Shown: positions 21,900 through 64,000, counted from the stretch's first letter. The stretch is 64,000 nt of DNA from Mycobacteriales bacterium (GCA_035550315.1 DASZPL010000135.1:27379-91378), one strand, 5' to 3'. Made by a program: numbers and translations. Notes: a model not told the origin generated them from the sequence alone.

Positions 21900-21902
21900 C
21901 GC

Positions 21903-22580: not shown

Positions 22581-22608
22581 GGCGGCCGGGGTTGGGCGGG
22601 TCGCTAGC

Positions 22609-36397: not shown

Positions 36398-36435
36398 GCC
36401 GGGTTGTTCGCCCGGAGCGAACTGGCTCGCGCGGA

Positions 36436-36473
36436 GAATGCTTACGCGATTACATGTAATCACGCAAGCATTC
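36436..36473. promoter_or_regulatory. 38-bp near-perfect palindrome (17/19 arm matches)
   Basis: GAATGCTTACGCGATTACA|TGTAATCACGCAAGCATTC is AT-richer than its surroundings. It ends 4 nt before the GAGGAGG SD of the 36492 gene and starts 39 nt after the cyclase stop. Confidence 0.7.
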
Positions 36474-46129: not shown

Positions 46130-46633
46130 CTAGACGCGGCTGGGTTGGGGTGGCCGCAACGCGATGTTGGCGCAGGCCTCGCAGGTCGTCTCCGGCACCA
46201 GTCCCAGCCGCATCAAAACGGCAAAGACCTTGCATCCGACGCAGTACGCGAAGATCGACTCGAGGCCCGCCGCGACGATCATCACGCCGAGCAGTGCTTG
46301 GGTGACGGTGTCGTGACCGGCCGCCAGAAAGCCGAGTGCCGTGGCCGTGACGACTGCCCCGATGGCCTGGGCGAAGCGCTTGGGTGGCCCAGCCACGGGT
46401 TTGGCGGGGCCGAGATGAGGCGCGACCACGCGGGTTGCGATCTGGCCGAGCGGGCTCAACGTCGGTCCGGTCAGCACCCGGGCGAAGAACCCGTAGACGA
46501 CGATCGGCAGCAGCCACAGCCAACCGGCTCCGGCGGTCAGGCTGAGGACGAGGATGACCACGCTCATCGCTAGTACGCCGGCCGCTACGGTGCGCGCGGC
46601 GAGCTCATTGACCGGGTTGGGGAATTCGAACAC
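46130..46633 (-). CDS. DUF4395 family membrane protein
   Basis: 167 aa with four hydrophobic helices. The C-terminal CVGC and CEAC pairs fit the DUF4395 pattern as I remember it. Confidence 0.6.
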   Translation of the reverse strand: MFEFPNPVNELAARTVAAGVLAMSVVILVLSLTAGAGWLWLLPIVVYGFFARVLTGPTLSPLGQIATRVVAPHLGPAKPVAGPPKRFAQAIGAVVTATALGFLAAGHDTVTQALLGVMIVAAGLESIFAYCVGCKVFAVLMRLGLVPETTCEACANIALRPPQPSRV

Positions 46634-46660: not shown

Positions 46661-47461
46661 TCAACGCGCTAGTGCGTCAACCAATGCCCGTTGGTGCTGA
46701 ACCTTCTTCGTGTCGCCGACGAGTGCCGCTTCGAGATCGACGACGCATCCAGCCAGCGGCGTCGCCGCGAGCTTGGCTGAGTACGGCGCGAGCTCGGTCG
46801 CCAGCCTTGTCTCCGCCTTCAGCACCTGTGTGCGGTGCGGCGAGTAGAGCGGCGCAATCAGGTTGAACAACCCGTTGGATCCGGTACCGAACAGCGTGAG
46901 CAACGGTCGCAATGCGGGCTTCAGGCTGTCCGCCAGCTTTGGATACTCCGCCAGGATCGGGCCCAACAGCTCCAGCTCCGGCTGGTACGCCGCAGCCGCG
47001 GCGAAGGCCTCGGCGGAGAACGGACCGAATGCCGGCGCAAGCGATACCAGCGACTGAACTCCCCCGATGTCCGCCGGCCGCGCGATGGCCACGGGACACT
47101 TGCCGATAGCGCTCACCGGCACGGGTGGGATCGATGAGCCCGATGACGGTGTCGGCTTTGTCGGCGACGGCGATGGCGCCGTCGAAGCCGTCGACGCGTG
47201 ATGCTGTCCCGGAGCGGTCGACGTTGACGGTGCGTTGTCGCCGCTTGCTGCCACCGGCGCGGCCAGCGCCGGCGCCGGGCTGGCACTGGGCGCCGGTGGG
47301 GTGGGTGCCGGCGGCGTCGACGAGCTGCTGGCGGGGCGGAACGTCCGGGTCGTGACCTGCGTGACGTGCACGGCGAAGGCGACCAATGCCGCCAGCGCCA
47401 GCGCCAAGACCGCGGCGAGACCTCCCCGCAGGACGGCGCGGTGTTGCAACAGCCGGGTCAC
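46661..47461 (-). CDS. membrane-anchored hypothetical protein (TM, Pro/Ser/Thr/Ala linker, helical C-terminal domain)
   Basis: GTG 47461 overlaps the upstream stop (GTGA). The N-terminal TM is LAAVLALALAALVAFAV, followed by a ~100-aa PSTA-rich linker and a ~150-aa domain with no recognisable motif. The upstream ~330 codons of the 599-aa track ORF are an out-of-frame overlap with the neighbouring gene. Confidence 0.6.
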   Translation of the reverse strand: MTRLLQHRAVLRGGLAAVLALALAALVAFAVHVTQVTTRTFRPASSSSTPPAPTPPAPSASPAPALAAPVAASGDNAPSTSTAPGQHHASTASTAPSPSPTKPTPSSGSSIPPVPVSAIGKCPVAIARPADIGGVQSLVSLAPAFGPFSAEAFAAAAAYQPELELLGPILAEYPKLADSLKPALRPLLTLFGTGSNGLFNLIAPLYSPHRTQVLKAETRLATELAPYSAKLAATPLAGCVVDLEAALVGDTKKVQHQRALVDALAR

Positions 47462-48531
47462 GTCGTCGGCCCCGGTTGCCGATCGACCCGGCTGATGGTG
47501 AGCAGGCCGCCGGCGGCAGCGACGGCGATAGCGAGTGCGACAGCGATCAGCCACCACGTCACGTGCCACTTGTCGTGCGTCACGGTCGTCGTCGAGGCTG
47601 CGGCCGGCTGTCCCGCCACCTGCGGTGGGGCGGCGTTGTCGGACCCCTGGCTCGTTGCCCGGGCAGCGGATCCCGGCCTCGGGTTGCTGCCACCGCCCGC
47701 CGGGCTCGTCCCGGTTGCCGCCCCGGGCGCGGCCGAGGGCCCGCCGGCCGTTGTTCCTGCCGGCGAGTTGTTCCCCGCCTTGGCCGCGGACCCGGATGTC
47801 GACGTCGCCGCGGTCGACGTGCCGGTGCTCGGCTCGAAGTGCCCGACGAGGTGCCATGAGCCAGTGAACTTGTCGAACGGTCCGCCGACCACCTGACTCG
47901 TCCAGTGCAAGGTAAAGGCGCCGGTCGCGGCGTCGTACGTCCCGGTGGCGGGTCGGGTGTTTCCGGGATAGCTCCCGTCCGGCTTCGGGGCGCCCTGGTT
48001 GAAGTACTGGTTGTTCCAGGACACCGAGAACGAGCGGAGATCCGCCGTCAGTGTCCCGCCGTGGTCGGTGACGGTCGGCGCCGGCACTTTGGTCTTGGTC
48101 TGCGGGTCGATCGGGTTTGTGGCGGTCGCGAACGACGTCCCCTCGAACTGCGCCGGGGCGGTGATGCGCTGCGCCCGGGCGTTGCCGGACGAGTCGAACG
48201 GCGGGGACGGCGTCGGTTGGTAGGACCCGATGCGCAGGCCACCGTCGGATCCTCCGGACAGCGGGGTATAGGCCTGATCGCTGCACTGAGAGTCGCTGTT
48301 CGACATGTAAGGACCGCTCGCCGATCCACTCGGCAGGATCATCTGCAGGTACGTCCCGGAAACCTGGCCGTGCGTGCACGTTCCTGGAGTGAGCACCAAC
48401 GTCCCGGTGAGCTTGCTCGCGGCGGACGCGGGTTGCGCGTGCCAGAGCCCGCCGGCGCAAGTCGCTGCCAGCAGGGCGGGCAGGAGCAGGGCCGCCGCGC
48501 CACTTCTGCGGCGAAGAGCAATGCCAGTCAT
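47458..48531 (-). CDS. secreted 2-Cys domain protein, paralogue 1 (signal peptide, conserved domain, low-complexity linker, C-terminal TM anchor)
   Basis: ATG 48531 gives MTGIALRRRSGAAALLLPALLA... with a signal peptide. The ~190-aa domain is shared with 49618, 62532 and 63497. The tail is STAGP-rich and ends in the TM helix WWLIAVALAIAVAAAGGLL. Confidence 0.7.
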   Translation of the reverse strand: MTGIALRRRSGAAALLLPALLAATCAGGLWHAQPASAASKLTGTLVLTPGTCTHGQVSGTYLQMILPSGSASGPYMSNSDSQCSDQAYTPLSGGSDGGLRIGSYQPTPSPPFDSSGNARAQRITAPAQFEGTSFATATNPIDPQTKTKVPAPTVTDHGGTLTADLRSFSVSWNNQYFNQGAPKPDGSYPGNTRPATGTYDAATGAFTLHWTSQVVGGPFDKFTGSWHLVGHFEPSTGTSTAATSTSGSAAKAGNNSPAGTTAGGPSAAPGAATGTSPAGGGSNPRPGSAARATSQGSDNAAPPQVAGQPAAASTTTVTHDKWHVTWWLIAVALAIAVAAAGGLLTISRVDRQPGPTT

Positions 48532-48555
48532 GGGTCTGCGATCCGCCTGAGTCGT

Positions 48556-48631
48556 TGTTATCTCTCGATGGACTATCATAATCTACTAAAGTAAGTTACA
48601 CCACTAATGACCTAGGCAGCGATACCCGGGA
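48556..48631. promoter_or_regulatory. AT-rich divergent intergenic region between the 48531(-) and 48632(+) operons
   Basis: TGTTATCTCTCGATGGACTATCATAATCTACTAAAGTAAGTTACACCACTAATGACCTAGG stands out against the GC-rich background. It lies between two divergently transcribed genes. Confidence 0.5.
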
Positions 48632-49621
48632 GTGGGCTTGGGCGCCAACGGATCGGCCACGCACCGCGTTCGGCGATGGGCACTAGTTGCCTGCGCGGTG
48701 CTGGGGCTCGCGCTGGCAACGGCCCCGGTCGCCTTCGACATGTTCGCCCGTGCTCCGAAGGGCGCCGTGATGATGGACGACTTCAAGCCCTTCATGACCG
48801 CGCAGCGACTCGACGGCTACCAGGGCGATATCGCCTCGATCGGTCGCGCGGTGCATGAGGTCGACACGACCGTGAAGAGCCGGCTGCGATCACACGGCCG
48901 ATCACTACCGGGGAGCTATCGCCGGTTGAGCGACCGATGGCCGCAGATCAACGCAACCATGCGCCGGCTGTTGGACCGGGTACAGGCAAATCTCGGCAAC
49001 CATCGCGCCGTCGCTGCCCTGCCGAGCTTCCGACTGTTTCCGTGGTTCTTCGTCATTCCGGGTGTGCTGATCCTCCTCGTCGCCGCGGCCGCGCTGCTCC
49101 GCTGGCTGCCGCTGACGGGCGCCCGCATCGGGCTCGGCGTACTGGGCCTAGGACTCGTGCTCGCCCCGGTGGCGTTCCAGATGTTCACGCGCGCGCCGCA
49201 AGGCGCGCGGATGATGTCGGCGTTCCGCACGATCGAGACCACTTCGAACGTGCAGCGGATCCAGGGCTACTTCTCGACCATGGCTGTCGGTCAGGGGGCG
49301 GTGCGCATCGATGTCGTTCCCGCCCTGACGCGAACCGGACTGACCGCGCAGCAGGTCGACCGGCGATACCCGGCAACCGCGCACCTCGATGCGCAGTGGG
49401 TCCACATCCTCAACGACATGACGCCGATGATCGGCGCGATGAGCGACAGCGTGCCGCGCTACCAGGCGATCTCGGCGCTGCCCTCCTTCACGCTCTTCCC
49501 GTGGTTTTTCCTGATCCCGGGCGTTTTCACCGGTGCACTCGCCTGCTGGGCACGACGACGAGCGATCACAACCGAAGAACCGCTCGAAGCAAAGACGCCC
49601 GAACCGGAGGGAGCTCGATGA
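48632..49621 (+). CDS. internally duplicated membrane protein (unknown family)
   Basis: 329 aa built from two homologous halves. Each half is TM, then APVAF(D/Q)MF(A/T)RAP(K/Q)GA.MM, then ~100 aa, then ALPSF.LFPWFF.IPGV (TM). Confidence 0.65.
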   Translation: MGLGANGSATHRVRRWALVACAVLGLALATAPVAFDMFARAPKGAVMMDDFKPFMTAQRLDGYQGDIASIGRAVHEVDTTVKSRLRSHGRSLPGSYRRLSDRWPQINATMRRLLDRVQANLGNHRAVAALPSFRLFPWFFVIPGVLILLVAAAALLRWLPLTGARIGLGVLGLGLVLAPVAFQMFTRAPQGARMMSAFRTIETTSNVQRIQGYFSTMAVGQGAVRIDVVPALTRTGLTAQQVDRRYPATAHLDAQWVHILNDMTPMIGAMSDSVPRYQAISALPSFTLFPWFFLIPGVFTGALACWARRRAITTEEPLEAKTPEPEGAR

Positions 49622-50337
49622 CCCGGCCACGCACGTTGTCTTTGTTCGCCGCAGTCGCCGCCGTCGTCGCGACTGCGGCGGCATGCGGCGGCTCGGGAAG
49701 TTCGTCCGGTGACAGTCAGAGCGCCGGATCCGGCAAGCCGCTCGTCGGGACGTTTCGACTGACACCCGGCAAGTGCACATCTGGCGCGCCGACCGGCTCC
49801 TACTTCCGCATGATCGAGCCGCATGGCACGCTCGCGCATGGCAAGTTCTTCGACAATCCCGACTCCACCTGCAAGGACAAGTCCTTCACGGTGCAGGCGC
49901 CCGGCGCGGATGGTGGGCTGGAGACCGGTCGGTACCAGCCGAGCCCGGCGACTCCCTTCGACGCAACCGGCAACTCCCGCGCCCACCTCATCACGAAGCC
50001 CGGCACGTTCACTGCGATCCGGTTCGGCATCGAGACGAACCGAGTGGATCCGCAAACCCATCACGCGGTTCCACCGCCGCGGATCGTTGACACCGCCGGC
50101 AAGCTCTCCGGCCAGGTGGAGGCCTGGTCGGCATCCTGGAACAACCAGTACTTCAACCAGGGCTCGCCGAAGCCGGACGGCAGTCGACCGGGACTCACAT
50201 TGCCGGTGCGAGGGACATACGACGCGCGCACGGGCGCGTTCGTCCTGACCTGGGCAAGTCAGGTCGTCGGTGGCCCGTTCAACGGCTTCACCGGCTACTG
50301 GCACCTGCAGGGCCACTTCGTTGCGGCGCGGCGCTAG
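49618..50337 (+). CDS. 2-Cys domain lipoprotein, paralogue 2
   Basis: ATGA overlap with the upstream stop. Lipobox ATAAAC. The domain aligns by eye along its whole length with paralogue 1 (GTFRLTPGKC..GSYFRM..C.., WNNQYFNQG.PKPDG, GTYDA.TGAF.L.W.SQVVGGPF..FTG.WHL.GHF). Confidence 0.75.
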   Translation: MTRPRTLSLFAAVAAVVATAAACGGSGSSSGDSQSAGSGKPLVGTFRLTPGKCTSGAPTGSYFRMIEPHGTLAHGKFFDNPDSTCKDKSFTVQAPGADGGLETGRYQPSPATPFDATGNSRAHLITKPGTFTAIRFGIETNRVDPQTHHAVPPPRIVDTAGKLSGQVEAWSASWNNQYFNQGSPKPDGSRPGLTLPVRGTYDARTGAFVLTWASQVVGGPFNGFTGYWHLQGHFVAARR

Positions 50338-50820
50338 ATGCGCATCTCAGCAAAGTCCGACAACGCGGTGCGCGCGATGGCGGAGCTGGCCGCCGCGGGT
50401 GACGGCGCCCTGGTCCGGGCCGAGGACATCGCGGCGGCCCAGGGGATTCCTGTGACCTTCCTTCTCGGCATCCTCCGCGAGTTGCGGGTTGCGCACCTCG
50501 TGCGGAGCTATCGGGGTCGCGGCGCCGGCTTCGCGCTCGCGCGCTCACCTGAGGCGATCACCATCGCCGATGTCATTCGCGCCGTCGATGGCCCGCTGGC
50601 AAATGTCCGCGGCCTGAGTCCGGACGAGCTGACCTACCGCGGGTCCGCCGCGCCACTACGTGAGGTGTGGTTTGCCGTCCGCGGAAGCCTGCGCGAGGTG
50701 CTCGAGCAGGTCACGCTCGCCGACCTCGTGCGCACCGAGCTGCCCGCGAACGTGAGGTTCTGGGCAGCGCGTTACACCGCCGAGCAGGTGGAACGCGGAT
50801 GGACCGCGAGCGTTTCCTGA
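50338..50820 (+). CDS. Rrf2 family transcriptional regulator (no cysteines)
   Basis: Carries MRISAKSDNAVRAMAELA......V.AEDIA.AQGIP..FL..IL.EL..A.LV.S.RG..GG..LAR....I...DVIRAVDGPL. The ATG follows the preceding TAG directly. Confidence 0.85.
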   Translation: MRISAKSDNAVRAMAELAAAGDGALVRAEDIAAAQGIPVTFLLGILRELRVAHLVRSYRGRGAGFALARSPEAITIADVIRAVDGPLANVRGLSPDELTYRGSAAPLREVWFAVRGSLREVLEQVTLADLVRTELPANVRFWAARYTAEQVERGWTASVS

Positions 50821-50842
50821 CGGCTACGACGAGCGGTGACCG

Positions 50843-51052
50843 TTACGCCGCGCTCGGCGCGTCGCCGTGCGCGAGGTGCAAGTAACGCAGCGACTGCTCG
50901 ATGTGGCGCCGCTGGGCGACCTGCTCGGCGGCAGCGGCAGCTGCGAGCGCGGCATTCCGGATGCTGTGCCGCTGCAGGCCGAGGAGCCGGTCGACGGTGA
51001 TCGCCGACCGATGCCAGGCGGCGACGGCGAGGCTGGAGAGTTGTCCGGTCAT
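50843..51052 (-). CDS. small hypothetical protein
   Basis: 69 aa starting at ATG 51052, 4 nt after the upstream stop. G/C-biased third positions; no motif. Confidence 0.4.
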   Translation of the reverse strand: MTGQLSSLAVAAWHRSAITVDRLLGLQRHSIRNAALAAAAAAEQVAQRRHIEQSLRYLHLAHGDAPSAA

Positions 51053-51056
51053 GGCC

Positions 51057-51641
51057 TCACGCTCCGAGGGACTGTGGCGTGGTGTGGCGCAACGCCGCAA
51101 CGTGACGGACGAACTGCTCGATCTGACCGATGGCGCGGACGGTCATGGCCGCGTTCACCGGCTGTCGCCGATCGGCGGGCAGGGCAGGCAGCCGCAGCTG
51201 CGGGTGGCTGTGGGCGGACCGGCGCAACGAGTTGGCCGTTGACTGCGCCACCGGCCGCACGGGCGGGCGGCCGGCCAAGATGATCCCGTCGCAGGCCTGC
51301 GGCGAGCGCCATGCGATCGAGGAGGCGACGAAGCCGCCGAACCCGTGGCCGGCGAAGATCGTCGGTAGCCCCTGGCGGGTCGCCAGTTCGACCAGCCGCT
51401 CGCCGGCAGCGAGCAGCTGGTCGAATGGCGGTTGGTCGAACGGGTCGGCGTGGTCGGCGACGTCTGCAGTGCATCCCGCCGCCCACACGATGGTGTCTCG
51501 CGCGCTGAGTGCTTCAGCAAGCTCCTGGTATTGCTCAGGCTCCTCGCCGGCGCCCGGGAACAGCACAAGCGCAGCGATCGGTTGGGCGGCACGCCACCGA
51601 CGGAAGTGGATGGGCCGCCCGACGGCGCTGGGGAGCAGCAT
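51057..51641 (-). CDS. alpha/beta-hydrolase-fold-like protein lacking the nucleophile serine
   Basis: ATG 51641 with a GAGGAGG SD. ALVLFPGAGEEPEQY... and the nucleophile-elbow position reads GHGFGG instead of GHSxGG. Confidence 0.55.
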   Translation of the reverse strand: MLLPSAVGRPIHFRRWRAAQPIAALVLFPGAGEEPEQYQELAEALSARDTIVWAAGCTADVADHADPFDQPPFDQLLAAGERLVELATRQGLPTIFAGHGFGGFVASSIAWRSPQACDGIILAGRPPVRPVAQSTANSLRRSAHSHPQLRLPALPADRRQPVNAAMTVRAIGQIEQFVRHVAALRHTTPQSLGA

Positions 51642-51719
51642 TGTCGCCTCCTCGGGATATGACGCGAGCTGTGTGGGTCCCAGCCTGTCCGCACCGGCTG
51701 ACAATGTCAAGTAAATCAA

Positions 51720-53126
51720 TCAAGTTAATGTAGTGATTCCGAGGCGGACGGCGGTGTCGAAGGGTTGGTTGACCAGCACGACGCCAGCTTCGCGGGCGTT
51801 GAGCAGCGACGCGGCAACCGCGGCGCGGAAGCCGCCGCCGCAGTACACCCAGATGCCGCGCGCTGACGGCGGTACACCGGAACGCCGGTCGCTGTCGACG
51901 ATCTCGGCCAGGTCGGGCAATGCGAAGTGACGTGCCCCGACCACGTGACCGGCCTGGTACTCCTGCTCGCTGCGGACGTCGAGCACGATCGGTTCGGCTC
52001 GCTGTCGCTCCTCCGCCAAGTCGGCGAACCGCCGGACCGAGTAACTACGGAGTCGCTCACGGTCACCGCCCGACCACTGGTCGGGAGACCCGAGCATCAT
52101 TCCGAGCGGTCGGTCGATCCCGACTTGAACGAGTTGACGCTGCGCGGTCGCAACCTCGCTGTCGCTGCCGAGCAGCACGACTCCGGCGCCGGCCGGGAGG
52201 ATCCACGGCAGGTACGCGACGAGCGGACCGCTCGCCTCGATATTGATCGAGCCGGCAAGATGCTGGCCGGCAAAAGCCACCCGATCGCGCACATCGACCA
52301 GCCAGTGGCCGGCGGCAGCCAATGCGATGAGGTCTTTCGGTTCAAGCGGCTTCGGCGGATCGAGGACGACCGGTGTCGGGCCGATTGCGTTGTGGAGCGG
52401 GAGGCGCCCGTAGTGGCGGGGGATCGGTCCGTAGCCTGCGATGAGCGCGTCGACAAAGTCTTGCTCCGGCGTCAGCAGGGCCGGGTTGACGAGGCACTCT
52501 TCGGCCAGCGTTGCTGACGCGGTCTCGCCGGCGACATCGGCCGAGCAGAACGACCCGAAGCCGTGGGTCGGCAGCAGCAACGTGTCGGGGGGCAGCTCGT
52601 CGACGAGCCGGCGCACGGACCGCCACTGGGCGTGTGCCAGCTCGACGGTCTGCGCTGAACCGTAGAGGTCCGTCCGTCCGACCGAGCCGTTCAGCAATGC
52701 CCCACCCGTGCAAACGGCGACGGGCCCGTTGGCGGCTTCGATGACCAGGGCAACATGGTGCGGGGTGTGACCGGGCGTCGCGAGCGCACGCAGTGCGAGG
52801 CCGCCGGCGGCGTAGGTCACGCCTTCCGTGGCCGGCGTGAAGCCGAATCTCGGGTCCGGGTCACCCGGCGGCACGACATAGGTGGCGCGGTGGCGGCGCG
52901 ACAGCTCCAGCCCGCCGGACACGTAGTCCGCATGCCGATGGGTTTCGGCGACCAACTCGATCCGGGCATCGTGGCGTTCGGCGACCGCTTCGATCCGGTC
53001 GATGTCCCGTGGAGGATCGACCACCAATGCGGTCGATCCCTCCGTGATGACATAGGTCCGGTTGCCGAGGCACGGATTCGCCAATGACTCAATCTGCACG
53101 GGAGCAGCCTTTCCGCCGGCAGGCAA
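51720..53126 (-). CDS. persulfide dioxygenase (MBL fold) fused to tandem rhodanese domains (CstB-like)
   Basis: MBL motif ETHRHADYVSGG, then ATPGHTPHH and LPTHG. Two rhodanese modules follow, the last with the active-site loop CGGGFRAA. GTG 53099 is an alternative start. Confidence 0.75.
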   Translation of the reverse strand: MPAGGKAAPVQIESLANPCLGNRTYVITEGSTALVVDPPRDIDRIEAVAERHDARIELVAETHRHADYVSGGLELSRRHRATYVVPPGDPDPRFGFTPATEGVTYAAGGLALRALATPGHTPHHVALVIEAANGPVAVCTGGALLNGSVGRTDLYGSAQTVELAHAQWRSVRRLVDELPPDTLLLPTHGFGSFCSADVAGETASATLAEECLVNPALLTPEQDFVDALIAGYGPIPRHYGRLPLHNAIGPTPVVLDPPKPLEPKDLIALAAAGHWLVDVRDRVAFAGQHLAGSINIEASGPLVAYLPWILPAGAGVVLLGSDSEVATAQRQLVQVGIDRPLGMMLGSPDQWSGGDRERLRSYSVRRFADLAEERQRAEPIVLDVRSEQEYQAGHVVGARHFALPDLAEIVDSDRRSGVPPSARGIWVYCGGGFRAAVAASLLNAREAGVVLVNQPFDTAVRLGITTLT

Positions 53127-53145
53127 GGTCGATAGAGTTAGTGAT

Positions 53146-55809: not shown

Positions 55810-55888
55810 TCGGGGGCGGCCTGTCGCGCAGATCACATTTGCGCGCGGCACCTGCGTTGGCGCCCCGCGCCCCATCGTGATATACGTT

Positions 55889-55915
55889 CTAAACGACCTA
55901 AGTTGAGTGGTTTAG
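55889..55915. promoter_or_regulatory. CTAAAC-N15-GTTTAG inverted repeat upstream of the SBP56-like gene
   Basis: Perfect 6-bp arms at 55889-55894 and 55910-55915 sit inside an AT-rich patch (55878-55925), ~35 nt upstream of the ATG at 55951. Confidence 0.5.
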
Positions 55916-55950
55916 TGCATATAGGCCATACGCCACCAGGAGGATGGGGA

Positions 55951-58374
55951 ATGCGGCTCGGCTCACGGACCAGGCGGAGCGTCATCATCGCGGCGGCCCT
56001 CGCGGTCGTCGCCTCGACTGGCACTGCCGTTGCAGCGTCGACGCAGCAATCAACTGGCGCCAACAGTTTGCTGCCGACCGTCACGAGGACGATCTCGAAA
56101 ATCTCGACCGGCGTGGGCAAGGTGACGGAGAGCATCAACTACACCGTCAACGCCGACCCGCAGTCGCGTGCGGACGCAACCGACAGCTATGGCAATCCGC
56201 TTGAGGGCCTGTCCCTGAAGGGTCTGCCCAGCCTGCCGGGCCTGGGCGCGAAGCTGCCGCTCGAGGACGGCAACAACCCCGACCTCGACAACGAGCCGTC
56301 CGGTGGTGCCTCGTGCCCGCCCGCCGGCAAGGGCCACGAGTACATGATCGTGTGGGCCGGCAAGATGAACGCGGCCGACCTGACCGGCAGCGACGTTGTC
56401 GATCTGCTGAACGGCGGCGAGGTCAACCCGGAGGGCCTCGCGTCTGAGATTCCCATCGAGTTCGGTGAGACCGGCTCGGACATGATGGTCACGATCGACG
56501 CCGAGCCCGGGTGTAACACCTACGGCAAGGTGGTCAACGTCTCGGTGATCACTGGTCCCGACGGCATCGAGAACGAGCCGCACCACATGCAGTACACCTG
56601 GTATCCGAACCAGACGGTCTGGGCCGGCGGTCTGTTCACATCACGGCTGTTCACGTTCGATCTGTCGAACCTGCCGCAGGTGACGCTGCAGAAGATCGAC
56701 GAGCCGTGGGCCACGCCGAGCGGGAGTATTTGGGACGCCTTTGCGACCCTGCCTAACGGCGACGCCTACGGCACGTTGATGGGCGGCCCGCTCTACGCGT
56801 ACGGCACGACGCCCGGCGCCGTCGTCGAGATTGCCGGCAACGACCACCCGGGCGCCAAGCCCGGCGACATCCTCGGTGAGTGGCCCGCCGACGCGCCGAA
56901 CAAGCTCGTCGACGGACTGAACTCGAACGGATCGGCCGCGGGCGCACTGCTGCAATCGCTCGGCCAGACCGTGACCAACGTCCCGAATCTCATCAACAGC
57001 ACCAACTGCCCGCCGCCGAACTCGAACGACGGCCGGAAGCGGGCCGGATGCGACACCGGCCTGAACCTCAAGACCGGGTCTGGCATCACCAAGTGCCCCG
57101 ATTTCGGCAGCTGCGCCAACCCGCACGGTGTCCAAGTGCGCGCCGACCTGAAGACGTTGGTCACCTCGGACTACGCCGAGCCGGCGCAGATCATCGAAGA
57201 CCCGATCAAGCCGTCGAGCGCGAACTACTTCCGGCGGACGGTCCGAGTCTGGAGCTTGGGCAACCAAGGGTGCTCCGGCAACAAGACGCCGGGCGCCTCG
57301 CTGAATCACCCCGAGATCTGTGCGGTCGACGTCATGCCACAGGGACCGCGTGACGACGCCAACCCGGCGCACGCGGAAAACATGGGAATCATGGAGAACG
57401 GCGCTACCTGGGACTACCCCTTGCCCGACGGCCGGATCCCGAAGGGGTGGTTCTCGGAAAGCATGTGTGGCGGCGCGGTCTTCTACACGCCGGACATCAC
57501 CGACACCAAGGACCACCCCTGGCACGAGGTCTTCGACTCGACCGCCGCCGCGAACGCGCTGCATAACGGCGGCGCCGGACGCAACGCACCCGGCGGCAAC
57601 AACGGCAAGACCCCGCTGAATGAGCCAGCCGGCTGCGACGGCGCCGCATGGGACGTCGTGAGTCCGGACAACCGGTTCCTCGGTCACGCCGTGAACGGCC
57701 GGTTTGTCCTGCAGGACGACTTCGACGACGCCGGCTCGCCGAAGATGGTCTACACCCTCAGCATCACGAAGCTGCTCGAAGCCGGCGACAGCTACAAGTG
57801 CGACCTCTCGGACAACGTCCGTGCGCTTGCCGACCCGACCCTCGGGGGCAAGGACTGCCCGACCGTCGTCGGTGTGGTCCCGATCAACGACCCGACCTCC
57901 GGCGGTCCGCACTGGGCCGAGTTCGACAACTTCCGGCTCGCCGCGGTCAAGATCAAGGATCCGAAGACCGGAAAGATTGTCACCGACTATCACGCCCCGA
58001 CCCGGATCGCGGAAGCCAACTACTTCGTCGCGCGCACCGGCGTCGACGGCAACCACACGGTCTGCATGATCAACATGAACCCGAAGACCGGCTCGCTGTC
58101 GCTGGACACCAGCTTCATCGACGAGACCGAGGGCACGCCCTGTGTCCAGTTCAACCGTCGTGACTGGCCGGACCCGAACATCAAGGGGTTCTACAAGCCG
58201 CACTCGATGCTGTTCGTCGAGAACGGCGCGCCCGCTACGGGCTATACGCCGTACGGCCACGACTACGGCCCGAACTGCCAGTTCGGCAAGGTCGTCGACG
58301 GCGAATGCCATGGCTACTGGGGCGAGCCGATCGACATGGGAGCCGATACCGCCGGCCTCCCGTACGAGGAGTGA
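55951..58374 (+). CDS. expanded selenium-binding-protein (SBP56)/methanethiol-oxidase-like secreted protein
   Basis: ATG 55951 with a GGAGGA SD. The signal peptide has a twin arginine (SRTRRSVIIAAALAV). Colinear by-eye matches to SBP56: MMVTIDAEPGCNTYGKVV..NEPHHMQYTW (cf. LATVDVDPKSPQY..VIH..ELHHSGWN), SRLFTFDL, HGVQVRADLKTLVTSDYAEP, SPDNRFL, GGPHW. At 807 aa it is far longer than the ~470 aa I recall for the family. Confidence 0.6.
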   Translation: MRLGSRTRRSVIIAAALAVVASTGTAVAASTQQSTGANSLLPTVTRTISKISTGVGKVTESINYTVNADPQSRADATDSYGNPLEGLSLKGLPSLPGLGAKLPLEDGNNPDLDNEPSGGASCPPAGKGHEYMIVWAGKMNAADLTGSDVVDLLNGGEVNPEGLASEIPIEFGETGSDMMVTIDAEPGCNTYGKVVNVSVITGPDGIENEPHHMQYTWYPNQTVWAGGLFTSRLFTFDLSNLPQVTLQKIDEPWATPSGSIWDAFATLPNGDAYGTLMGGPLYAYGTTPGAVVEIAGNDHPGAKPGDILGEWPADAPNKLVDGLNSNGSAAGALLQSLGQTVTNVPNLINSTNCPPPNSNDGRKRAGCDTGLNLKTGSGITKCPDFGSCANPHGVQVRADLKTLVTSDYAEPAQIIEDPIKPSSANYFRRTVRVWSLGNQGCSGNKTPGASLNHPEICAVDVMPQGPRDDANPAHAENMGIMENGATWDYPLPDGRIPKGWFSESMCGGAVFYTPDITDTKDHPWHEVFDSTAAANALHNGGAGRNAPGGNNGKTPLNEPAGCDGAAWDVVSPDNRFLGHAVNGRFVLQDDFDDAGSPKMVYTLSITKLLEAGDSYKCDLSDNVRALADPTLGGKDCPTVVGVVPINDPTSGGPHWAEFDNFRLAAVKIKDPKTGKIVTDYHAPTRIAEANYFVARTGVDGNHTVCMINMNPKTGSLSLDTSFIDETEGTPCVQFNRRDWPDPNIKGFYKPHSMLFVENGAPATGYTPYGHDYGPNCQFGKVVDGECHGYWGEPIDMGADTAGLPYEE

Positions 58375-61178
58375 CGGCGGGCCGCCCGCCGCGCCGGAGC
58401 CTGCGATTGCTCCGGCGCGGCGGAACGGTCGCAGTGCTGGCCGGGGGGCTTGCCGTCGGCATCGCGAGTCCGGCGTCTGCGCATCCCTACCTGCTGCGCA
58501 GCGATCCGGTAGCAGGTGCCGTGCTGCCTGCTACCCCCAGCGAGATCCACATCTTCTACACCGAGGGTCTCGACCGGCCGTACTGCTCGGTCACGATCGT
58601 GACGCCTGCCGGTCAGGACATCACCACTCGACAGGTCGCTGCCGGACAGCCGACCGAGCTCGCCGTCGCGCCCACCCGGTCGCTGACCGCGACCGGCACG
58701 TACGCGGTTGAGTGGACGGCGGTCGGCGATGACGGCCACACCGTCATCGGCAACTTCGGTTTCAGCGTGGGGCATCCGACGAGCAACTCGGCGGTTGGGT
58801 CAACGGTTGGCACGACGACCGGCAGCGCAAGCGGTCAAGCCGGCCTGCAGCGACTGCTGCGGACCGTGCAGCCGATCGCCACTGTCATCTTCGCGGGATT
58901 CTTGTTACTCGCCGGCGCCATAGCCGCTGCTCGGCGCCGGGCCGTGCGCGCTCGTGCCATCAGTTTCGCGGTGCACTGCGGCGTCGTGCTTGCGTTGTGC
59001 GGCGCGGCCGTGGCCGATGGCGGATGGACCGCATTTGCCGGCTCCGAGCTCGGGCATCGGCTTCTCGTCGCGCTCGGACTCAGCCTGTTGGCCGTCGGCG
59101 TGGTTGTCGATCGGGGCGCCCTGGCCGCCGGGCGAGCACCGGCCGGCTGGCGGCGCTACGCCGGCCCGGCTCTCGCTGCTGGCCTGCTCGTCGTCCTCGC
59201 CATGTCCGGGCATGCCGACAGTCAGCCCGAGAGCCGGCGGGCACTGGCGATCGTGGTCTATTCGGTGCATCTCGTCGCAGTGAGCGTCTGGATCGGAGCG
59301 CTGGTTGCGGTGCTCCTGCGGCTGCGACCCGGACGGGACATTGCGCTGACCGACTCATCGGTGCGGCGGTTGCGCGGAGTCGTCGTGGTCTCGCTCCTAG
59401 CCGTGCTGGGAACCGGGCTTGCGACGACCGACTGGGGACTGCGGTCGCTGTCCGATGTGCTGCACACGACGTACGGCGCGCTTGCCATCACCAAGCTGTC
59501 GCTGTTCGGCGTCATCGTCGTTCTCGGTGGCGCCGCGGCCTGGTCCCGGACGCGTGGCCATCGCCGTCGGGTTGGCTCGATGTTGTTTGCCGCAGAGGGA
59601 ACGGTTGCCGTCGCGACGTTGGTGGTGGCCGGAGCCCTCGGCCAGATTGCGCAGCCGCTCGATCAGCCCTACGCCTCGCAGGCCTACGCCAGCGCCGCCG
59701 GGCTGCCGGTCGCCGTTGCTGCTGACGGGTCCGATTCGCTCGTTGTCGGGGCATTGGCACCCGGGATCGTCGGTGACAACACCCTCGTCGTCGAGGTTGG
59801 AGACGCCGACGAGGATGACTTTCTGAGCCCGGCGCCGGACGTGCGCTCCGTTCGTGCGACGTTGAGCTGTGGTTGCGGAGTAGCTGATCGCGACGTACGG
59901 CTGCAGCCGACCGGCGGTGGTGCCGAGTGGACCGGCGACGTGGATCTGCCGGCGGCCGCATCGTGGTTGGTCACGGCCCACGTGCGACGGTCGAACGGCT
60001 CGCCGGTCACGGTGCGGCTGCCGGAGCAGGTCGACCGGCCTGACCTGCCCGACCAGGTGGTAGTCGGAGTGCCGACGTCGTTGTCGGGGCGCACGGGCGA
60101 GACCTGCCGGGACGAGACCCTCGGCCTCCAGGTCGCGCTGGCCGACGTGAACTCGACGGCCGCCGATCACGGCGCGCTCGTCCGGGTGGTGGCGGTCGAT
60201 CTGCACGACGGCGTTGCCTCGGCGATCGCCCGGCTGCGGCGGCTTGGCGCGGCCGTCTTGGCCATGCCATGCGGGAGTCAGCAGCAGCTCAGTCGCATCG
60301 AGCGCGGCGCGGATGCGGCGGGCCTGCCAGTGGTGACCGGCGCGGCGACCACCGCGACCGATGCCGCTACCTGGTCGATGCAACCGGACTGGCGCTCGGA
60401 GGGAGCCGCAATCGGTCAGCAGGCCGTTCGGCAAGGGGGCCGCGTCGTGACGGCCGTCGTCGGTCGCACCGCAGTCGACCGCATGGAGGTCGCCGGCTTG
60501 CGCAGCGCGTTGGCGGACACCTCGGTGCGGCTGCGGACGAGCGTGCTGCCCGATCGGCCGGTGCGCTGGGTCCGGTCGCTCGAGCAGACTCGCACCGACC
60601 TGGTCGCGGTCCTGGCCGACCGCGAGGAAGCGCTGCCGCTGACCCACGCCTTCTCGAAGGTCGTCGCCGACGCGGGATGGCTGCCCTCGCACGGAATCGT
60701 GGCGTCCAGCCAGTTGATGAGCACCGACTTCATCAACGCCGCGGGGGACATCACCCGACTCGGCGCGATCGAGTTCGCGAGTGACATCAACCCATTCGAC
60801 CCGGTCTCGCAGTACTACGCCGAGCGGTTGCGGGCGCTCGAGCCCGGCTTGCGTCCCAGCTTTGACGGGCTGCACGGCTACGAAGGAGGCCTTGTGATCA
60901 GCTCCGCCCTACGCGACGGAGGCGGCCGTCCGTCGGCAGCGCAGCTGACCGGGCTGCTCGGCCGACGCTTCACGGACTTCGCGGTCGGCAGTTACCGCGT
61001 CGGGTGGCGTCCGACCGGCGGCACCTCGACATCGATCGCCTTCTTCCGGTCGACGTACATCAACCCGATGGCGCTGCCGGCCGATACGCCGGGTGGCGCC
61101 TCCTCGCTCGCTCACGAGGGCACGTTCCTCGACACCGGCGGGTTCGAGCAGGTCGCGCCGTTCCGGACGATCTCATGA
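58371..61178 (+). CDS. CopC-CopD-YtkA-like-periplasmic-binding-protein (type 1) fusion
   Basis: GTGA overlap with the upstream stop. Signal peptide ASA|HPYLLRSDP, with a CopC domain ending DDGHTVIGNFGFSV. A multi-TM CopD-like region follows, then an Ig-like segment (GDNTLVVEV...WTGDVDL...WLVTAHV), then a ~370-aa LivJ/PBP1-like C-terminal domain. Confidence 0.65.
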   Translation: MTAGRPPRRSLRLLRRGGTVAVLAGGLAVGIASPASAHPYLLRSDPVAGAVLPATPSEIHIFYTEGLDRPYCSVTIVTPAGQDITTRQVAAGQPTELAVAPTRSLTATGTYAVEWTAVGDDGHTVIGNFGFSVGHPTSNSAVGSTVGTTTGSASGQAGLQRLLRTVQPIATVIFAGFLLLAGAIAAARRRAVRARAISFAVHCGVVLALCGAAVADGGWTAFAGSELGHRLLVALGLSLLAVGVVVDRGALAAGRAPAGWRRYAGPALAAGLLVVLAMSGHADSQPESRRALAIVVYSVHLVAVSVWIGALVAVLLRLRPGRDIALTDSSVRRLRGVVVVSLLAVLGTGLATTDWGLRSLSDVLHTTYGALAITKLSLFGVIVVLGGAAAWSRTRGHRRRVGSMLFAAEGTVAVATLVVAGALGQIAQPLDQPYASQAYASAAGLPVAVAADGSDSLVVGALAPGIVGDNTLVVEVGDADEDDFLSPAPDVRSVRATLSCGCGVADRDVRLQPTGGGAEWTGDVDLPAAASWLVTAHVRRSNGSPVTVRLPEQVDRPDLPDQVVVGVPTSLSGRTGETCRDETLGLQVALADVNSTAADHGALVRVVAVDLHDGVASAIARLRRLGAAVLAMPCGSQQQLSRIERGADAAGLPVVTGAATTATDAATWSMQPDWRSEGAAIGQQAVRQGGRVVTAVVGRTAVDRMEVAGLRSALADTSVRLRTSVLPDRPVRWVRSLEQTRTDLVAVLADREEALPLTHAFSKVVADAGWLPSHGIVASSQLMSTDFINAAGDITRLGAIEFASDINPFDPVSQYYAERLRALEPGLRPSFDGLHGYEGGLVISSALRDGGGRPSAAQLTGLLGRRFTDFAVGSYRVGWRPTGGTSTSIAFFRSTYINPMALPADTPGGASSLAHEGTFLDTGGFEQVAPFRTIS

Positions 61179-61882
61179 CAGGTCGCAGGCTCCGACGGCC
61201 CGCTGATGCGGCCTTGACTGCGGTCTTGCTCTCGGCACTCGCGCTCGGCCTGACCGGCTGCGGCGGGGGGAGCGCCGATAGCTCCGGCGGCGTGTCGTCG
61301 GCAGCGAGCCCGACCCCGATTAGCTCGCTCCGCGAATCCGGCGACACGCCGCCGGTCCCGCCCGGCTGCACGAGTGCGGCGTTGCCCGCGGTCTATCGGG
61401 AGGACGGTCGGCACAGCGGCGCCTTGTCGGCGACTGCCTACAGCTCATCCGCCGACGTCCAGGCAGCGCTGCTCTACGACCAGTACCAATCCGGTCTGCG
61501 AGCCGTGTTCACCAGGACGGCGCCGGCGCCCCGCACTCGGATCACCGGCGTTGTCAGCTGTGTCGCCATGCACTTTCCGACGACCGAGCAAGCCGCCCGT
61601 TTCTTCTCGTCGTACCGGTATCTGCGCAAACAAGCGGGTCGGCTCGCCCGGCGGTTGCCGATCGGGGCGTCGCTCGGAAGTGCGACGCGGTCGGCGGCGT
61701 ACCTCGAGCGACGGCAGTCGTTTCGCGGCTACCACATCGCGTCGACCGACGTCGCCGAGGTTGCGGCGCAATCCGGCAGCACGTTGTGGATCGCGTCGGT
61801 GGCGGCGCGACAACCTTCGGTCAGCCTCGCCAGGTCCCTGCTCGTTTCGATGCTGCGTGCGGACGCAAGAGGTGCCTCGTGA
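61175..61882 (+). CDS. lipoprotein, unknown function
   Basis: ATGA overlap with the upstream stop. Lipobox LGLTGC. 235 aa, no motif recognised. Confidence 0.6.
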   Translation: MTGRRLRRPADAALTAVLLSALALGLTGCGGGSADSSGGVSSAASPTPISSLRESGDTPPVPPGCTSAALPAVYREDGRHSGALSATAYSSSADVQAALLYDQYQSGLRAVFTRTAPAPRTRITGVVSCVAMHFPTTEQAARFFSSYRYLRKQAGRLARRLPIGASLGSATRSAAYLERRQSFRGYHIASTDVAEVAAQSGSTLWIASVAARQPSVSLARSLLVSMLRADARGAS

Positions 61883-62529
61883 CCGCGCGTAGCCGATGGG
61901 CGGCTGCCCTGCTCGTGGTGAGCATTGCCACCGCGACCGGATGCCACTCGCGCACGGTCACGGATGCCGGCATTGAGCGAACGCCGACCGGTACGACGAG
62001 TGCGGCAACTGCGCCCCCCGGTTCGGCAGCTCCGGGTCGGGGGAGGGCGGCGTACACCGCGCGACAGCTCGTCGACGACGGCTTGCCATCCAAGATTGGC
62101 CCGGGAGCCCTGACAAAGCCACAGGTCAAGCAGCTGATGCAGTACTTCGAGAACAAGGTGGCGCACGCCTACGCGACGGGCCGGAGCGATTCGCTGACGC
62201 ACTATCTCGCCGGCCCGATGCTCAGCGGCAACCGAGCGACGATCCAGCTGCTGGCGGCGAAGCACAAGCGCAACGTCTTCCACATCGATGTCGTGGCCGT
62301 GCACTTGCAGGCCAACGAAGCAACGCGCCTGGTTTTCGCTATGACCGGCGACATGACGTCGAACTACTTCGTTGACACCGCGACCGGTCGGGTGCTCGAC
62401 CACGGCCTGCCTGGACCGTCGCAGGTCAAGTTCCTGATCTTCCTCGACCAGAATCCCGCCACCCGCACGTGGTACTGGACCGGCGAGCAGTCGCAGGCCG
62501 CTGCGGACAACGCCACTGGGAGCGGGTGA
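61879..62529 (+). CDS. lipoprotein, unknown function
   Basis: GTGA overlap with the upstream stop. Lipobox ATATGC. 216 aa, no recognisable catalytic motif. Confidence 0.6.
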   Translation: MTARSRWAAALLVVSIATATGCHSRTVTDAGIERTPTGTTSAATAPPGSAAPGRGRAAYTARQLVDDGLPSKIGPGALTKPQVKQLMQYFENKVAHAYATGRSDSLTHYLAGPMLSGNRATIQLLAAKHKRNVFHIDVVAVHLQANEATRLVFAMTGDMTSNYFVDTATGRVLDHGLPGPSQVKFLIFLDQNPATRTWYWTGEQSQAAADNATGSG

Positions 62530-62531
62530 CG

Positions 62532-63500
62532 ATGCGTGGCAGCGCCGTTCGGTTCGTCGCCGCCGGGGTGTTGGCGGCGAGCCTCCTGCTGGTTGTCGGA
62601 TCCGTCGCGCCGGCAGCCGCCGGCTCACCGCCGGCGGCTCAGCAGTTGCGCGGGACCTTCCGGCTGGAGCGCGCGTCGTGCACCCGCGGCCACCCGTCGG
62701 GCAGCTACGTCACGGTGACGTACGGCACCCGATCGATCGCGAACCCGCAGTCCGGCTGCGACCGGGGGGTCTACACGTTGTTGCAACCTGGCCGCCGTGG
62801 TCTCTCGACCGAGCGGTTCAGCCCGCTCGACGACCTGACCTTCGACGGCGGTGGCGACCCGCACGGCGGCGGCATCGCCCGGACGGTCGGGTTCCGCGGC
62901 CACCGGCTCTCGTTGGTCACGTCCCCGCGGGACCTTCAGGCGGCCCCTACCGGACCAGCCGTGTTTGCCCCGCCGACCATCTATCTCATCGGCCATCGGC
63001 TGGTCGGTGACGTCCGGTCGGTGCAGGCGCTGTACGACGGACGGCCCGGCTCCTCCTGTGTGACCGCCGCTGGGGCCGGCTGCTGGCTGGTCGGGGCCGA
63101 GCGGGCGACGGGCAGCTTCAACCCGACGACGCGCCGGTTCTCGTTGCAGTGGTTCAGCGGCCAGTCCTTCGTCGGCTCGTCGGCCGGCACGGTGGTCCAC
63201 CTCGCCGGGCGCTTTTACGGTGTCGGTCGGCCGGTGCCCCAGGGTCGGACCGTCGATCTCGGGACGCAGAGCTTTGCCGCCGGATCGCCCCCGCCGCGCT
63301 CGGCCGTGGTCACGTCCGGCAAGCCGCGGCGCCACCGGGCGGCTCCTCGCCACCGGCGGACCGCGGGCCCGGCCACGGCCGCCGGTCGCGACGACACCGC
63401 CGGCCGGCCGGGATGGCCCGAGTCCGCGGCCGAGGTGCTGCTCGCACTCAACGGTGTCGCCTCGGTTGGCGTGCTGGCGCGACGAAGGAGGACCCGGTGA
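62532..63500 (+). CDS. secreted 2-Cys domain protein, paralogue 3 (divergent), with basic/Pro-rich tail and possible C-terminal anchor
   Basis: Signal peptide present. LRGTFRLERASCTRGHPSGSYVTV....PQSGCDRGVYTLLQPG and ...SLQWFSG...VHLAGRF align with paralogues 1 and 2. GTG 62526 (GTGA overlap) is an alternative start. Confidence 0.6.
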   Translation: MRGSAVRFVAAGVLAASLLLVVGSVAPAAAGSPPAAQQLRGTFRLERASCTRGHPSGSYVTVTYGTRSIANPQSGCDRGVYTLLQPGRRGLSTERFSPLDDLTFDGGGDPHGGGIARTVGFRGHRLSLVTSPRDLQAAPTGPAVFAPPTIYLIGHRLVGDVRSVQALYDGRPGSSCVTAAGAGCWLVGAERATGSFNPTTRRFSLQWFSGQSFVGSSAGTVVHLAGRFYGVGRPVPQGRTVDLGTQSFAAGSPPPRSAVVTSGKPRRHRAAPRHRRTAGPATAAGRDDTAGRPGWPESAAEVLLALNGVASVGVLARRRRTR

Positions 63501-64000
63501 TCGCCGTTCGGCGCGCGCAGATCACGGTGGTGGTTGCCGCGGTGCTCGCCGTGCTGCTCGCCGGCTGCAGTGGTGGGCCGCAGCAGCCGGCGGCGACCCG
63601 ACTGCAGGGCATCCTTCGCCTCGACGCCGGCCACTGCGGTGCGCGGCACCGGGCCCCGACCGGTAGCTACCTGATCGTGATCTCGGCCGCGACCGGCAAG
63701 GCGGTGCCAAACCCCGCGAGCGGCTGTCGCAATCACGACTACACGCTGCTGCAGCCGGGCACCGAGGGCGGGATCCGGACCGGGAGCTTTCAACGACAGC
63801 CAGCCCCGGCGTTCGACAGCCACCGCAACGCACGCGCCGGGCTGATCATCCGGCCCACTCGGTTCGGCCGTTACCGGTTCGGGCTCGCGACCAGCTCTCG
63901 TGACGAGCAGGATGCTCCCGCCGGTGCGCCGGCGTACCCCCCACCGACCGCCCTGGTGCGCGGGAACGCACTCTCGGTCGATCTGCGTTCGCTCGTGTTG
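63497..64000 (+). CDS. 2-Cys domain lipoprotein, paralogue 4; 3' end runs off the window
   Basis: Absent from the ORF track because it is open-ended. GTGA overlap with the upstream stop. Lipobox LLAGC. LQGILRLDAGHCGARHRAPTGSYLIV...PASGCRNHDYTLLQPGTEGGIRTGSF..PAPAFDS.RNARA matches the family. Confidence 0.6.
   Translation, partial: MIAVRRAQITVVVAAVLAVLLAGCSGGPQQPAATRLQGILRLDAGHCGARHRAPTGSYLIVISAATGKAVPNPASGCRNHDYTLLQPGTEGGIRTGSFQRQPAPAFDSHRNARAGLIIRPTRFGRYRFGLATSSRDEQDAPAGAPAYPPPTALVRGNALSVDLRSLVL

Follow-up and report, generated by a model that had tools for sequence, protein, structure and literature searches.

We analysed a 64,000-nucleotide stretch of DNA of a Mycobacteriales bacterium—hereafter the window, high in GC (~70%)—and found that four of its genes, c1 to c4, are true paralogues encoding one exported all-beta domain of ~195 aa. 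Two of them, c1 and c2, belong to a conserved envelope module of two divergent operons, whose beta domain, protein with four transmembrane (TM) helices, DUF4395 membrane protein and additional anchored protein, p239up, probably form one envelope complex. The family and the module are new: the family has no detectable relative in the sequence and structure libraries searched, and we found no description of it or of the module. As to its role, the module would most likely be a membrane-tethered device for the capture and hand-over of a sulfur-containing compound, a reading that we prefer tentatively; the complex itself is held with much more confidence than the class of its ligand.

Four copies of an exported beta domain

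The c1 gene (47458-48531, minus strand; a second possible start is the upstream ATG at 48579) encodes 357 aa made of a signal peptide, a type-A beta domain, a linker rich in Pro, Thr and Ala and a C-terminal TM anchor. c2 (49618-50337, plus strand) encodes a 239-aa lipoprotein that contains the type-A domain only, and is identical to the protein P0001 of a metagenome-assembled genome (MAG) at NCBI. c3 (62532-63500, plus strand), identical to the database protein P0391, encodes 322 aa with a signal peptide, a type-B, i.e. four-Cys, beta domain, a linker and a weak C-terminal anchor. Finally c4 (63497-64000, plus strand), a type-B lipoprotein, is interrupted by the window end, as had been noticed earlier; on the Logan contigs L081/L082, which extend past this end, it is 235 aa long in full.

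By pairwise BLASTP c1 and c2 are the closest pair (54-55% identity over ~200 aa, E 1e-75), followed by c2/c4 (40-41%, E 1e-22), c3/c4 (38-39%, E 1e-15 to 1e-18), c1/c4 (37-39%, E 1e-20 to 1e-22), c2/c3 (31%, E 1e-11) and c1/c3 (28%, E 1e-11 to 1e-13). Searching the 64-kb window by tblastn gave exactly four copies of the domain, and no fifth. A first-pass annotation of this DNA, made from the sequence alone, had described four open reading frames (ORFs) sharing an unrecognised secreted two-cysteine domain: BLASTP, tblastn and alignment all confirm them. The four-way alignment reproduces the motif reported then, both cysteines included, in the form L.G...L....C......G.Y ... N..S.C ... T ... G...G ... 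FD ... I ... F. The term “two-cysteine domain” is right for c1 and c2 but too narrow for c3 and c4, whose variant second half carries another Cys pair—the WNNQYFNQGSPKPDG loop of c1 and c2 is replaced there by a loop of the form ..C....GC... This variant half, shared by c3 and c4, explains why the third copy had seemed to match the second part of the motif only loosely. The type-B variant represents 16 of 281 domain instances.

The export signals are likewise those announced. c2 and c4 are predicted lipoproteins, their signal peptide ending in a lipobox which is canonical for c4 (LLAGC) and relaxed at position -3 for c2 (TAAAC). c1 and c3 do not match the lipobox pattern [LVI][ASTVI][GAS]C; both combine a signal peptide, a low-complexity linker and a C-terminal hydrophobic anchor. 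These two formats, lipoprotein on the one hand, signal peptide plus C-terminal TM anchor on the other, recur in the family, and a lenient pattern detects a lipobox in 90 of 120 close c2 homologues.

The search for c2 homologues in a collection of 5.8 billion proteins returned 975 matches, of which every one that any source names is called “hypothetical”; among the 120 listed matches, none has a precomputed Pfam domain. When the profile search was made exhaustive, it yielded 501 clusters (50% identity) at E<=1e-3, of which 208 reach E<=1e-30. We confirmed 271 genomic loci, nearly all in Actinomycetota; the carriers are Acidimicrobiia, Nocardioidaceae, Mycobacteriales MAGs, Mycobacteroides, Gordonia, Gaiellales, Solirubrobacterales and Miltoncostaeaceae. 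The family is real but modest in size, and almost restricted to Actinomycetota. Some members (P0121, P0124, P0125) contain tandem copies of the domain. Besides, P0134, P0214 and P0221, probably from outside Actinomycetota, are secreted proteins of 800-1000 aa with two to three Cys-less copies, and also contain MopE-type putative metal-binding repeats and thrombospondin type 3 (TSP3) repeats.

The AlphaFold2 (AF2) model of c2 (pLDDT 87.6, ~95 over residues 40-239) is all-beta, with 13 strands arranged as a run of hairpins. Already in the first-pass annotation the domain could be assigned to no known family, and this stands after a wider search: Pfam has no match at E<=1 for c1-c4 beyond signal-peptide noise; NCBIfam has no domain match for them; a profile built on a 42-sequence alignment of the domain gave only noise against the PDB sequences; and Foldseek of the c2 model against PDB and BFVD returned nothing significant (best PDB match E 0.28, TM-score 0.24). 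None of the eight module proteins matches any family of PADLOC, which covers known anti-phage defence systems, and when all of them are scanned with Pfam, NCBIfam and PADLOC only DUF4395 and a weak SPW match on TM helices appear. In the literature on DUF4395, on SBP56 with CopD and on persulfide dioxygenase with Rrf2 and a lipoprotein, we found no published description of the family.

The two cysteines are either kept or lost together. Among 262 domain instances from database proteins 214 have both, 47 (~18%) have neither and a single one has only one; the genome loci, counted separately, give 103, 31 and 1 respectively. A redox-active or metal-binding pair requires invariant cysteines, which the beta domain does not have. 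This strict covariation, together with the tolerated joint loss, argues for a dispensable structural disulfide rather than a metal or catalytic site; the first-pass annotation had left open the choice between disulfide and metal site, and the conservation of the pair speaks against the latter. Over 178 diverse domains no column of His, Met or Cys reaches 80% conservation: it is highest at Gly, Pro, Phe, Leu and Trp positions, as well as at N80, S83, T91, Q107, T140, D144 and Q181 (c2 numbering).

Membrane partners and natural fusions

Neighbourhood counts, unless another number is stated, were taken over 80 genome loci (L-numbered), and those of the partners are based on tblastn of the window proteins against these loci. 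Many of them hold at least two beta-domain genes. The constant partner is memb329 (48632-49621, plus strand; the NCBI start is 48698, giving 307 aa), which adjoins a beta-domain gene in 69 loci. This 4-TM protein is internally duplicated, the unit—TM helix, helical ectodomain of ~100 aa, TM helix—being present twice, so that it exposes two extracytoplasmic helical bundles; the motifs APxAFxMFxRAPxGAxMM and LPxFxLFPWFFxIPG are repeated in it. Its AF2 model is all-helical (pLDDT 91.6), and its Foldseek matches are only weak ones to TTYH proteins (E 5e-3 to 0.09, TM-score 0.20-0.31). Ten to eleven Met of memb329 are conserved among close homologues, and are often Leu in distant ones; for this reason we rejected a Met-rich Cu(I) site as evidence for copper.

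The two other partners lie on the minus strand, behind c1. p239up (46661-47461, 266 aa) has an N-terminal anchor, a low-complexity linker and a helical, Pro-punctuated C-terminal domain without any Pfam match. It has a homologue in 31 loci, and the two cysteines of its C-terminal domain are kept in 31 and 30 of these 31 homologues respectively. The DUF4395 membrane protein (46130-46633, 167 aa), present in 35 loci, matches Pfam PF14340 over the full profile (E 6e-31; 107.8 bits for a cut-off of 24.5). It has a CxxC-x16-CxxC arrangement spread over the end of the last TM helix and the tail, with all four Cys conserved in 34 of 34 homologues.

The first operon of the module thus comprises c1 (tail-anchored through a long linker), p239up and the DUF4395 gene, and the second comprises the 4-TM protein gene, c2 (a lipoprotein close to the membrane) and the gene of an Rrf2-family regulator. 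The stop of c1 overlaps the GTG start of p239up, and DUF4395 starts 28 nt further on; the stop of memb329 overlaps the ATG of c2, whose own stop abuts the ATG of Rrf2. From these junctions c1 and p239up, like memb329 and c2, are predicted to be translationally coupled in the window.

Moreover, the components are found as natural fusions. P0126 and L010 unite the 4-TM protein with the beta domain; P0146 and P0148 consist of a beta domain, a linker, a TM helix and the 4-TM protein (41-50% identity, E 5e-66 to 1e-89). DUF4395 is fused to the 4-TM protein in L031 (6345-7883). In L035 (7944-10385) a single ORF of 813 aa contains successively a signal peptide, the beta domain, a linker, a TM helix, the 4-TM protein and DUF4395. 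P0163 associates the beta domain, TIG repeats and the C-terminal domain of p239up (BLASTP 7e-16). Fusions in such varied combinations suggest that these proteins act as one membrane complex. From the order of their parts, the beta domain lies on the outer side of the membrane and the DUF4395 N-terminus on the cytoplasmic side; since L035 has DUF4395 right behind the final TM helix of the 4-TM protein, the cysteines of DUF4395 should be cytoplasmic. The first-pass annotation had proposed an extracytoplasmic domain working beside membrane proteins: the export signals, the adjacency counts and the fusions bear this out, and they designate a partner that had not been singled out, namely the 4-TM protein together with DUF4395 and p239up.

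The Cys-less Rrf2-family regulator (50338-50820, plus strand; Pfam Rrf2, 8e-33) has CymR as its nearest specific NCBIfam model, below the cut-off, and an Rrf2 gene is near the module in ~5 of the 80 loci. Between the divergent c1 and memb329 genes lies an AT-rich promoter region (48550-48620) containing a sigma-70-like site, and an AT-rich patch occupies the matching position in L001-L004, L008, L018, L026 and L034. The 64-kb window has five such patches, four of them at promoters of the gene island delimited by the four paralogues (48550-48620, 51693-51749, 53125-53175 and 55872-55933). The motif AGTTR-N(0-8)-TAGTG has two matches in the island promoters for 0.11 expected, which is suggestive only; a search for a shared operator in these promoters found no strong inverted repeats. 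The AT-rich patches may be operators of the Cys-less regulator. An Rfam scan of the window detected two tRNAs only, and no riboswitch near the island. Outside the island, a near-perfect AT-rich palindrome, GCTTACGCGATTACATGTAATCACGCAAGC, is found at 36433-36469, just 3' of a gene with an adenylate-cyclase domain (34877-36397).

c3 and c4 belong to another operon, which encodes in this order an SBP56-like protein, a CopC-CopD fusion, a 234-aa lipoprotein, a 247-aa exported protein, c3, c4 and a 199-aa helical protein. The SBP56/MtoX-like protein (55903-58374, plus strand; 823 aa, exported) is a distant relative of this family at most: it has no Pfam match at E<=5 (PF05694 included) and no PDB-sequence match, and the “SBP56” label that it had received comes down to 84 residues of the NCBIfam MtoX model, far below threshold (E 8e-10, 37.7 bits for a cut-off of 650). 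Its signal is of the twin-arginine-like type, TRRS. The CopC-CopD fusion (58305-61178, plus strand; 957 aa) is recognised as CopC by Pfam and as CopC and CopD by NCBIfam; its C-terminal ~500 aa have no domain assignment. Then come the lipoprotein (61178-61882, plus strand) and the 247-aa protein, p247 (61786-62529, plus strand). Beyond the window end c4 is followed by the 199-aa anchored helical protein, p199, and by a sulfate-binding protein; the latter, a substrate-binding protein of a sulfate ABC system, is at 5850-6359 of L081.

That c3 and c4 lie within a copper/SBP56-like operon is thus verified, their genes being co-directional and overlapping with the CopC-CopD operon genes. On the other hand, the claim that the four copies bracket the island holds for the window only. 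The same operon gene order exists in the closest relatives, L001 and L003, where the c3/c4 operon is convergent and comes directly after memb329-c2, and in L086 the c3/c4/p199 unit alone is placed likewise; the arrangement in L001 and L003 indicates that the bracketing is a local rearrangement. p199 homologues adjoin c4/c3-like genes in L001, L003 and L086, and none of p199, p247 and the 234-aa lipoprotein is similar to any of the core module proteins. As the search for close homologues of c3 found only four proteins, a profile of its subfamily could not be made. c3, c4 and p199 make up a divergent, lineage-restricted second set, with c3 and c4 as a rare and fast-evolving pair. Overall the SBP56-like gene is found in 6 loci and CopCD in 5-6. 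The pair that they form, present in 5-6 loci from four orders, is an uncharacterised conserved unit of its own.

Sulfur genes and the proposed role of the module

In the window the module is flanked by a PALP enzyme, by a gene for an MBL-rhodanese protein and, past the window end, by the sulfate-binding protein. The MBL-rhodanese protein (51720-53126, minus strand), persulfide dioxygenase-like, and a FAD-NAD(P)-binding protein of 915 aa (53062-55809, plus strand) were both identified by Pfam. When all the ORFs of the 80 loci are clustered and the clusters named with Pfam and NCBIfam, this pair is the commonest neighbour outside the core (13 loci). It is followed by LLM monooxygenases of the NtaA/DmoA, SsuD and SfnG types (10 loci), a SufS-like cysteine desulfurase (9), a MetN-like ATPase (8), a family 2A encapsulin shell (6), the Stf0 sulfotransferase (5), sulfatase, TauD and cysteine dioxygenase (CDO; 4 each) and a type III SQR-like protein (3). 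We had read the LLM neighbours as SfnG in the 10 loci, which was wrong: of 19 LLM monooxygenases scanned 8 are of the NtaA/DmoA type, 4 of the SsuD type and only one is SfnG.

By clustering, at least one sulfur family occurs in 32 of the 46 long loci outside Mycobacteroides. For comparison we used 80 metagenome loci anchored on PEPCK, with one tblastn criterion for both sets: at least one strict sulfur family was detected in 24 of the 80 test loci and in 2 of the 80 control loci. Restricting the comparison to loci of at least 12 kb gives 22 of 55 versus 1 of 24 (Fisher p ~1e-3). The incidence is 5.0 per 100 kb in the test set versus 0.27 in the control set. The module thus appears repeatedly embedded among genes for sulfur scavenging and for sulfide/persulfide oxidation. 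The first-pass annotation had suspected a link with sulfur or copper genes; the recurrent link to sulfur genes is found in other genomes, but only a minority of the loci (5-6 of 80) have the copper/SBP56-like operon nearby.

Some features of these neighbours can be reported apart. The MBL-rhodanese and FAD-NAD(P) genes are divergent, with annotated starts that overlap by ~65 nt, and crude ORF calls make them a single ORF in L013 and L016; the C-terminal half of the FAD-NAD(P) protein (~430 aa) has no domain assignment. In L029, L045, L046, L055, L071 and L075 the encapsulin shell (NCBIfam 530 bits, cut-off 380) and the SufS-like desulfurase lie less than 8 kb from the module; in L071 and L075 a cysteine dioxygenase and a type III SQR-like gene stand beside them. 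Upstream in the window, the regions 20529-23766 and 44209-45312 contribute more genes of sulfur amino acids, namely a cystathionine beta-synthase (PALP+CBS), a pyridoxal-phosphate enzyme of Cys/Met metabolism and a second PALP enzyme.

Taken with the anatomy of the proteins—one copy on a stalk, another near the membrane and a small partner within it, in some cases as one polypeptide, much as in CopC/CopD, YcnI/YcnJ and the surface relay proteins of Gram-positive bacteria, where tethered binding domains feed such a partner—this embedding among sulfur genes makes the capture and hand-over of a sulfur compound the most likely role. The beta domains on the outer face would capture the compound at the cell surface and would pass it to, or receive it from, the 4-TM/DUF4395 membrane part. 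More broadly, it is possible, if open to serious doubt, that the beta domain, the Tweety-like 4-TM protein, DUF4395 and p239up constitute a new actinobacterial envelope machine for sulfur species. Its cargo might then be sulfane sulfur or polysulfide, thiosulfate or sulfite, or an organosulfur compound, taken up, exported or relayed; we advance these candidates with as much reserve.

Several points weigh against a sulfur-specific role. The membrane partners have 4+4 TM helices only, with no recognisable transporter fold or ATPase, and the ligand, its binding site and its transport are all putative. The sulfur families were picked from the test loci themselves, the control contigs, taken from other samples, have a lower length, and observations made in related genomes are not independent. 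In many loci no sulfur gene lies within 8-10 kb: there is none in L088 nor in any of the 9 Mycobacteroides loci, and Marmoricola OAE513 has the module between trmD and rplS. The loci without sulfur genes are in line with a general envelope module that would handle lipids or other hydrophobic components, or would consist of surface-binding or structural proteins; sulfur genes would then be nearby through island hitch-hiking or shared stress regulation. We consider such a general role rather unlikely, while recognising that it survives better than the other alternatives. Like L088 and the Mycobacteroides loci, L083 is without sulfur genes. The Foldseek matches of the 4-TM protein are to TTYH only, one listed TTYH entry of the PDB being a complex with lipids, and the top non-significant matches of the beta domain are small beta-barrel ligand binders (HpuA, the lipocalin PGDS, LpqH, avidin, nitrobindin). 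Besides, tandem repeats and fusions with TIG and TSP3 are typical of surface proteins, and the Pro-punctuated segments of p239up are amphipathic. However, every one of these structural matches is below significance, an enrichment in sulfur genes across several orders and in differing gene orders is hard to obtain by chance, and in the window a Cys-less, CymR-like Rrf2 regulator shares the operon.

The cysteines of the membrane partners might evoke instead a transmembrane thiol-redox relay, in which DUF4395 would, like DsbD/CcdA, supply the Cys pairs of the exported partners with reducing equivalents drawn from the adjacent FAD-NAD(P) protein of the cytoplasm. The full conservation of the four DUF4395 cysteines, that of the p239up pair in 30-31 of 31 homologues and the presence of a Cys pair on most beta domains agree with such a relay; so do the 13 loci of the FAD-NAD(P) protein, the commonest extra neighbour, of which a 910-aa homologue directly follows DUF4395 on the same strand in L087. 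This relay is nevertheless unlikely. The pair of the beta domain is dispensable, and L031, L041 and L042 have DUF4395 but only Cys-less domains, which also weakens DUF4395 as an oxidoreductase for the beta-domain disulfide. The cysteines of DUF4395 are divided between the tail and the cytoplasmic end of its last helix, with a CxxC-x16-CxxC spacing that looks more like a Zn/Fe site than a membrane-embedded relay, and DUF4395 is missing from more than half of the 80 loci.

Still less credit can be given to the idea of the first-pass annotation, a carrier of copper or another metal, or a scaffold, serving the exported SBP56-like enzyme and CopC-CopD. Certainly the SBP56-like/CopCD operon closes with c3 and c4 in the window as in L001 and L003, memb329-c2 is followed by an SBP56-like gene and CopCD in L008, L026, L034 and L049, Cu P-type ATPases occur in 4 loci, and distant members of the family are fused to MopE-type putative metal-binding repeats. 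On the other hand only 9 of the 80 loci have copper genes, and distant homologues of the 4-TM protein frequently carry Leu in place of its conserved Met. The Cys pair of the beta domain is a dispensable disulfide; as the family has no conserved His, Met or Cys—Gly, Pro, aromatic residues and N, S, T, Q and D being its best-conserved positions—a copper carrier is unlikely. Comparison with known copper chaperones and carriers (CopC, YcnI/DUF1775, PCuAC, MopE) gave no hidden Markov model match and no conserved ligand set. From the earlier proposal of a substrate or metal carrier, or scaffold, there remain the extracytoplasmic location and the membrane partners, but copper is unlikely as the ligand.

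A role as sensor accessory, in which the beta-domain proteins would load the helical bundles of the 4-TM protein and these would sense an external cue transmitted through DUF4395 to Rrf2 regulation, is the least probable of all: the ligand-binding domains of the chemoreceptors PilJ, McpS and McpZ among the weak Foldseek matches of the 4-TM protein, Rrf2 in the same operon and the AT-rich patches with a common AGTTR..TAGTG motif at island promoters would fit it, but those matches are not significant, the module has no cytoplasmic signalling domain and Rrf2 accompanies it in so few loci.

Apart from the ABC systems for sulfate, sulfonate and methionine, little is known of the transport of sulfur compounds across the envelope of actinobacteria, and this gap is widest for the abundant Acidimicrobiia and Nocardioidaceae of soil and peat. 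A conserved four-component module whose only known domain is a DUF, with neighbours such as alkanesulfonate/sulfone monooxygenases, persulfide-dioxygenase-like enzymes, desulfurase encapsulins and the SBP56-like/CopCD operon, is a testable candidate for a missing step of sulfur transport. If it were indeed a sulfur envelope machine, it would provide a first function for DUF4395, built on a beta fold without solved relative in the PDB searched; at minimum, the beta domain is a new family suitable for domain databases. Genetic analysis is feasible in cultured carriers: Nocardioides, Marmoricola, Mycobacteroides chelonae, M. franklinii and Gordonia.

Comparison with known systems

The module resembles the CopC/CopD and YcnI/YcnJ systems—one CopC-CopD fusion being present in the window itself—in that an exported all-beta domain, anchored by a lipid or a TM helix, stands beside a multi-TM partner or is fused to it. 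It differs from both in that the beta domain matches them neither in sequence nor in fold and has no conserved His/Met ligands, and from CopC/CopD in its partners, a 4-TM helical-bundle protein and DUF4395 instead of CopD.

A recurring theme among the top Foldseek matches of the c2 model is that of small beta-barrel binders, i.e. lipocalins, avidins, nitrobindin, LpqH and HpuA. As all these matches have E >0.2 and TM-score <=0.24, no relationship can be claimed. Similarly, the 4-TM partner resembles the TTYH proteins in its architecture only: the TM helices of both are prolonged by a helical bundle outside the cell, but the identity is 12-16%, and TTYH proteins have five TM helices where the 4-TM partner has four, with an internal duplication.

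NEAT-domain Isd proteins and HtaA/HtaB are relay receptors of Gram-positive bacteria, in which paralogous domains encoded at one locus occur in a stalked form with a C-terminal TM anchor and in a membrane-proximal lipoprotein form. The module has the same anatomy, and some beta-domain members share with these receptors the tandem repeats. There is on the other hand no homology and no Pfam match with them, and no ABC importer is conserved beside the module: among the loci examined we found neither permease nor ATPase conserved there, and the beta domain, with its all-beta fold, matches no family of ABC solute-binding proteins.

As to DUF4395 (PF14340), finally, the neighbour in the window is a bona fide member of this family. 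The family is mentioned by two papers only, in passing in each, and is uncharacterised, so that its name gives no function. The fusion of DUF4395 to the module in L031 and L035 gives the family its first functional context.

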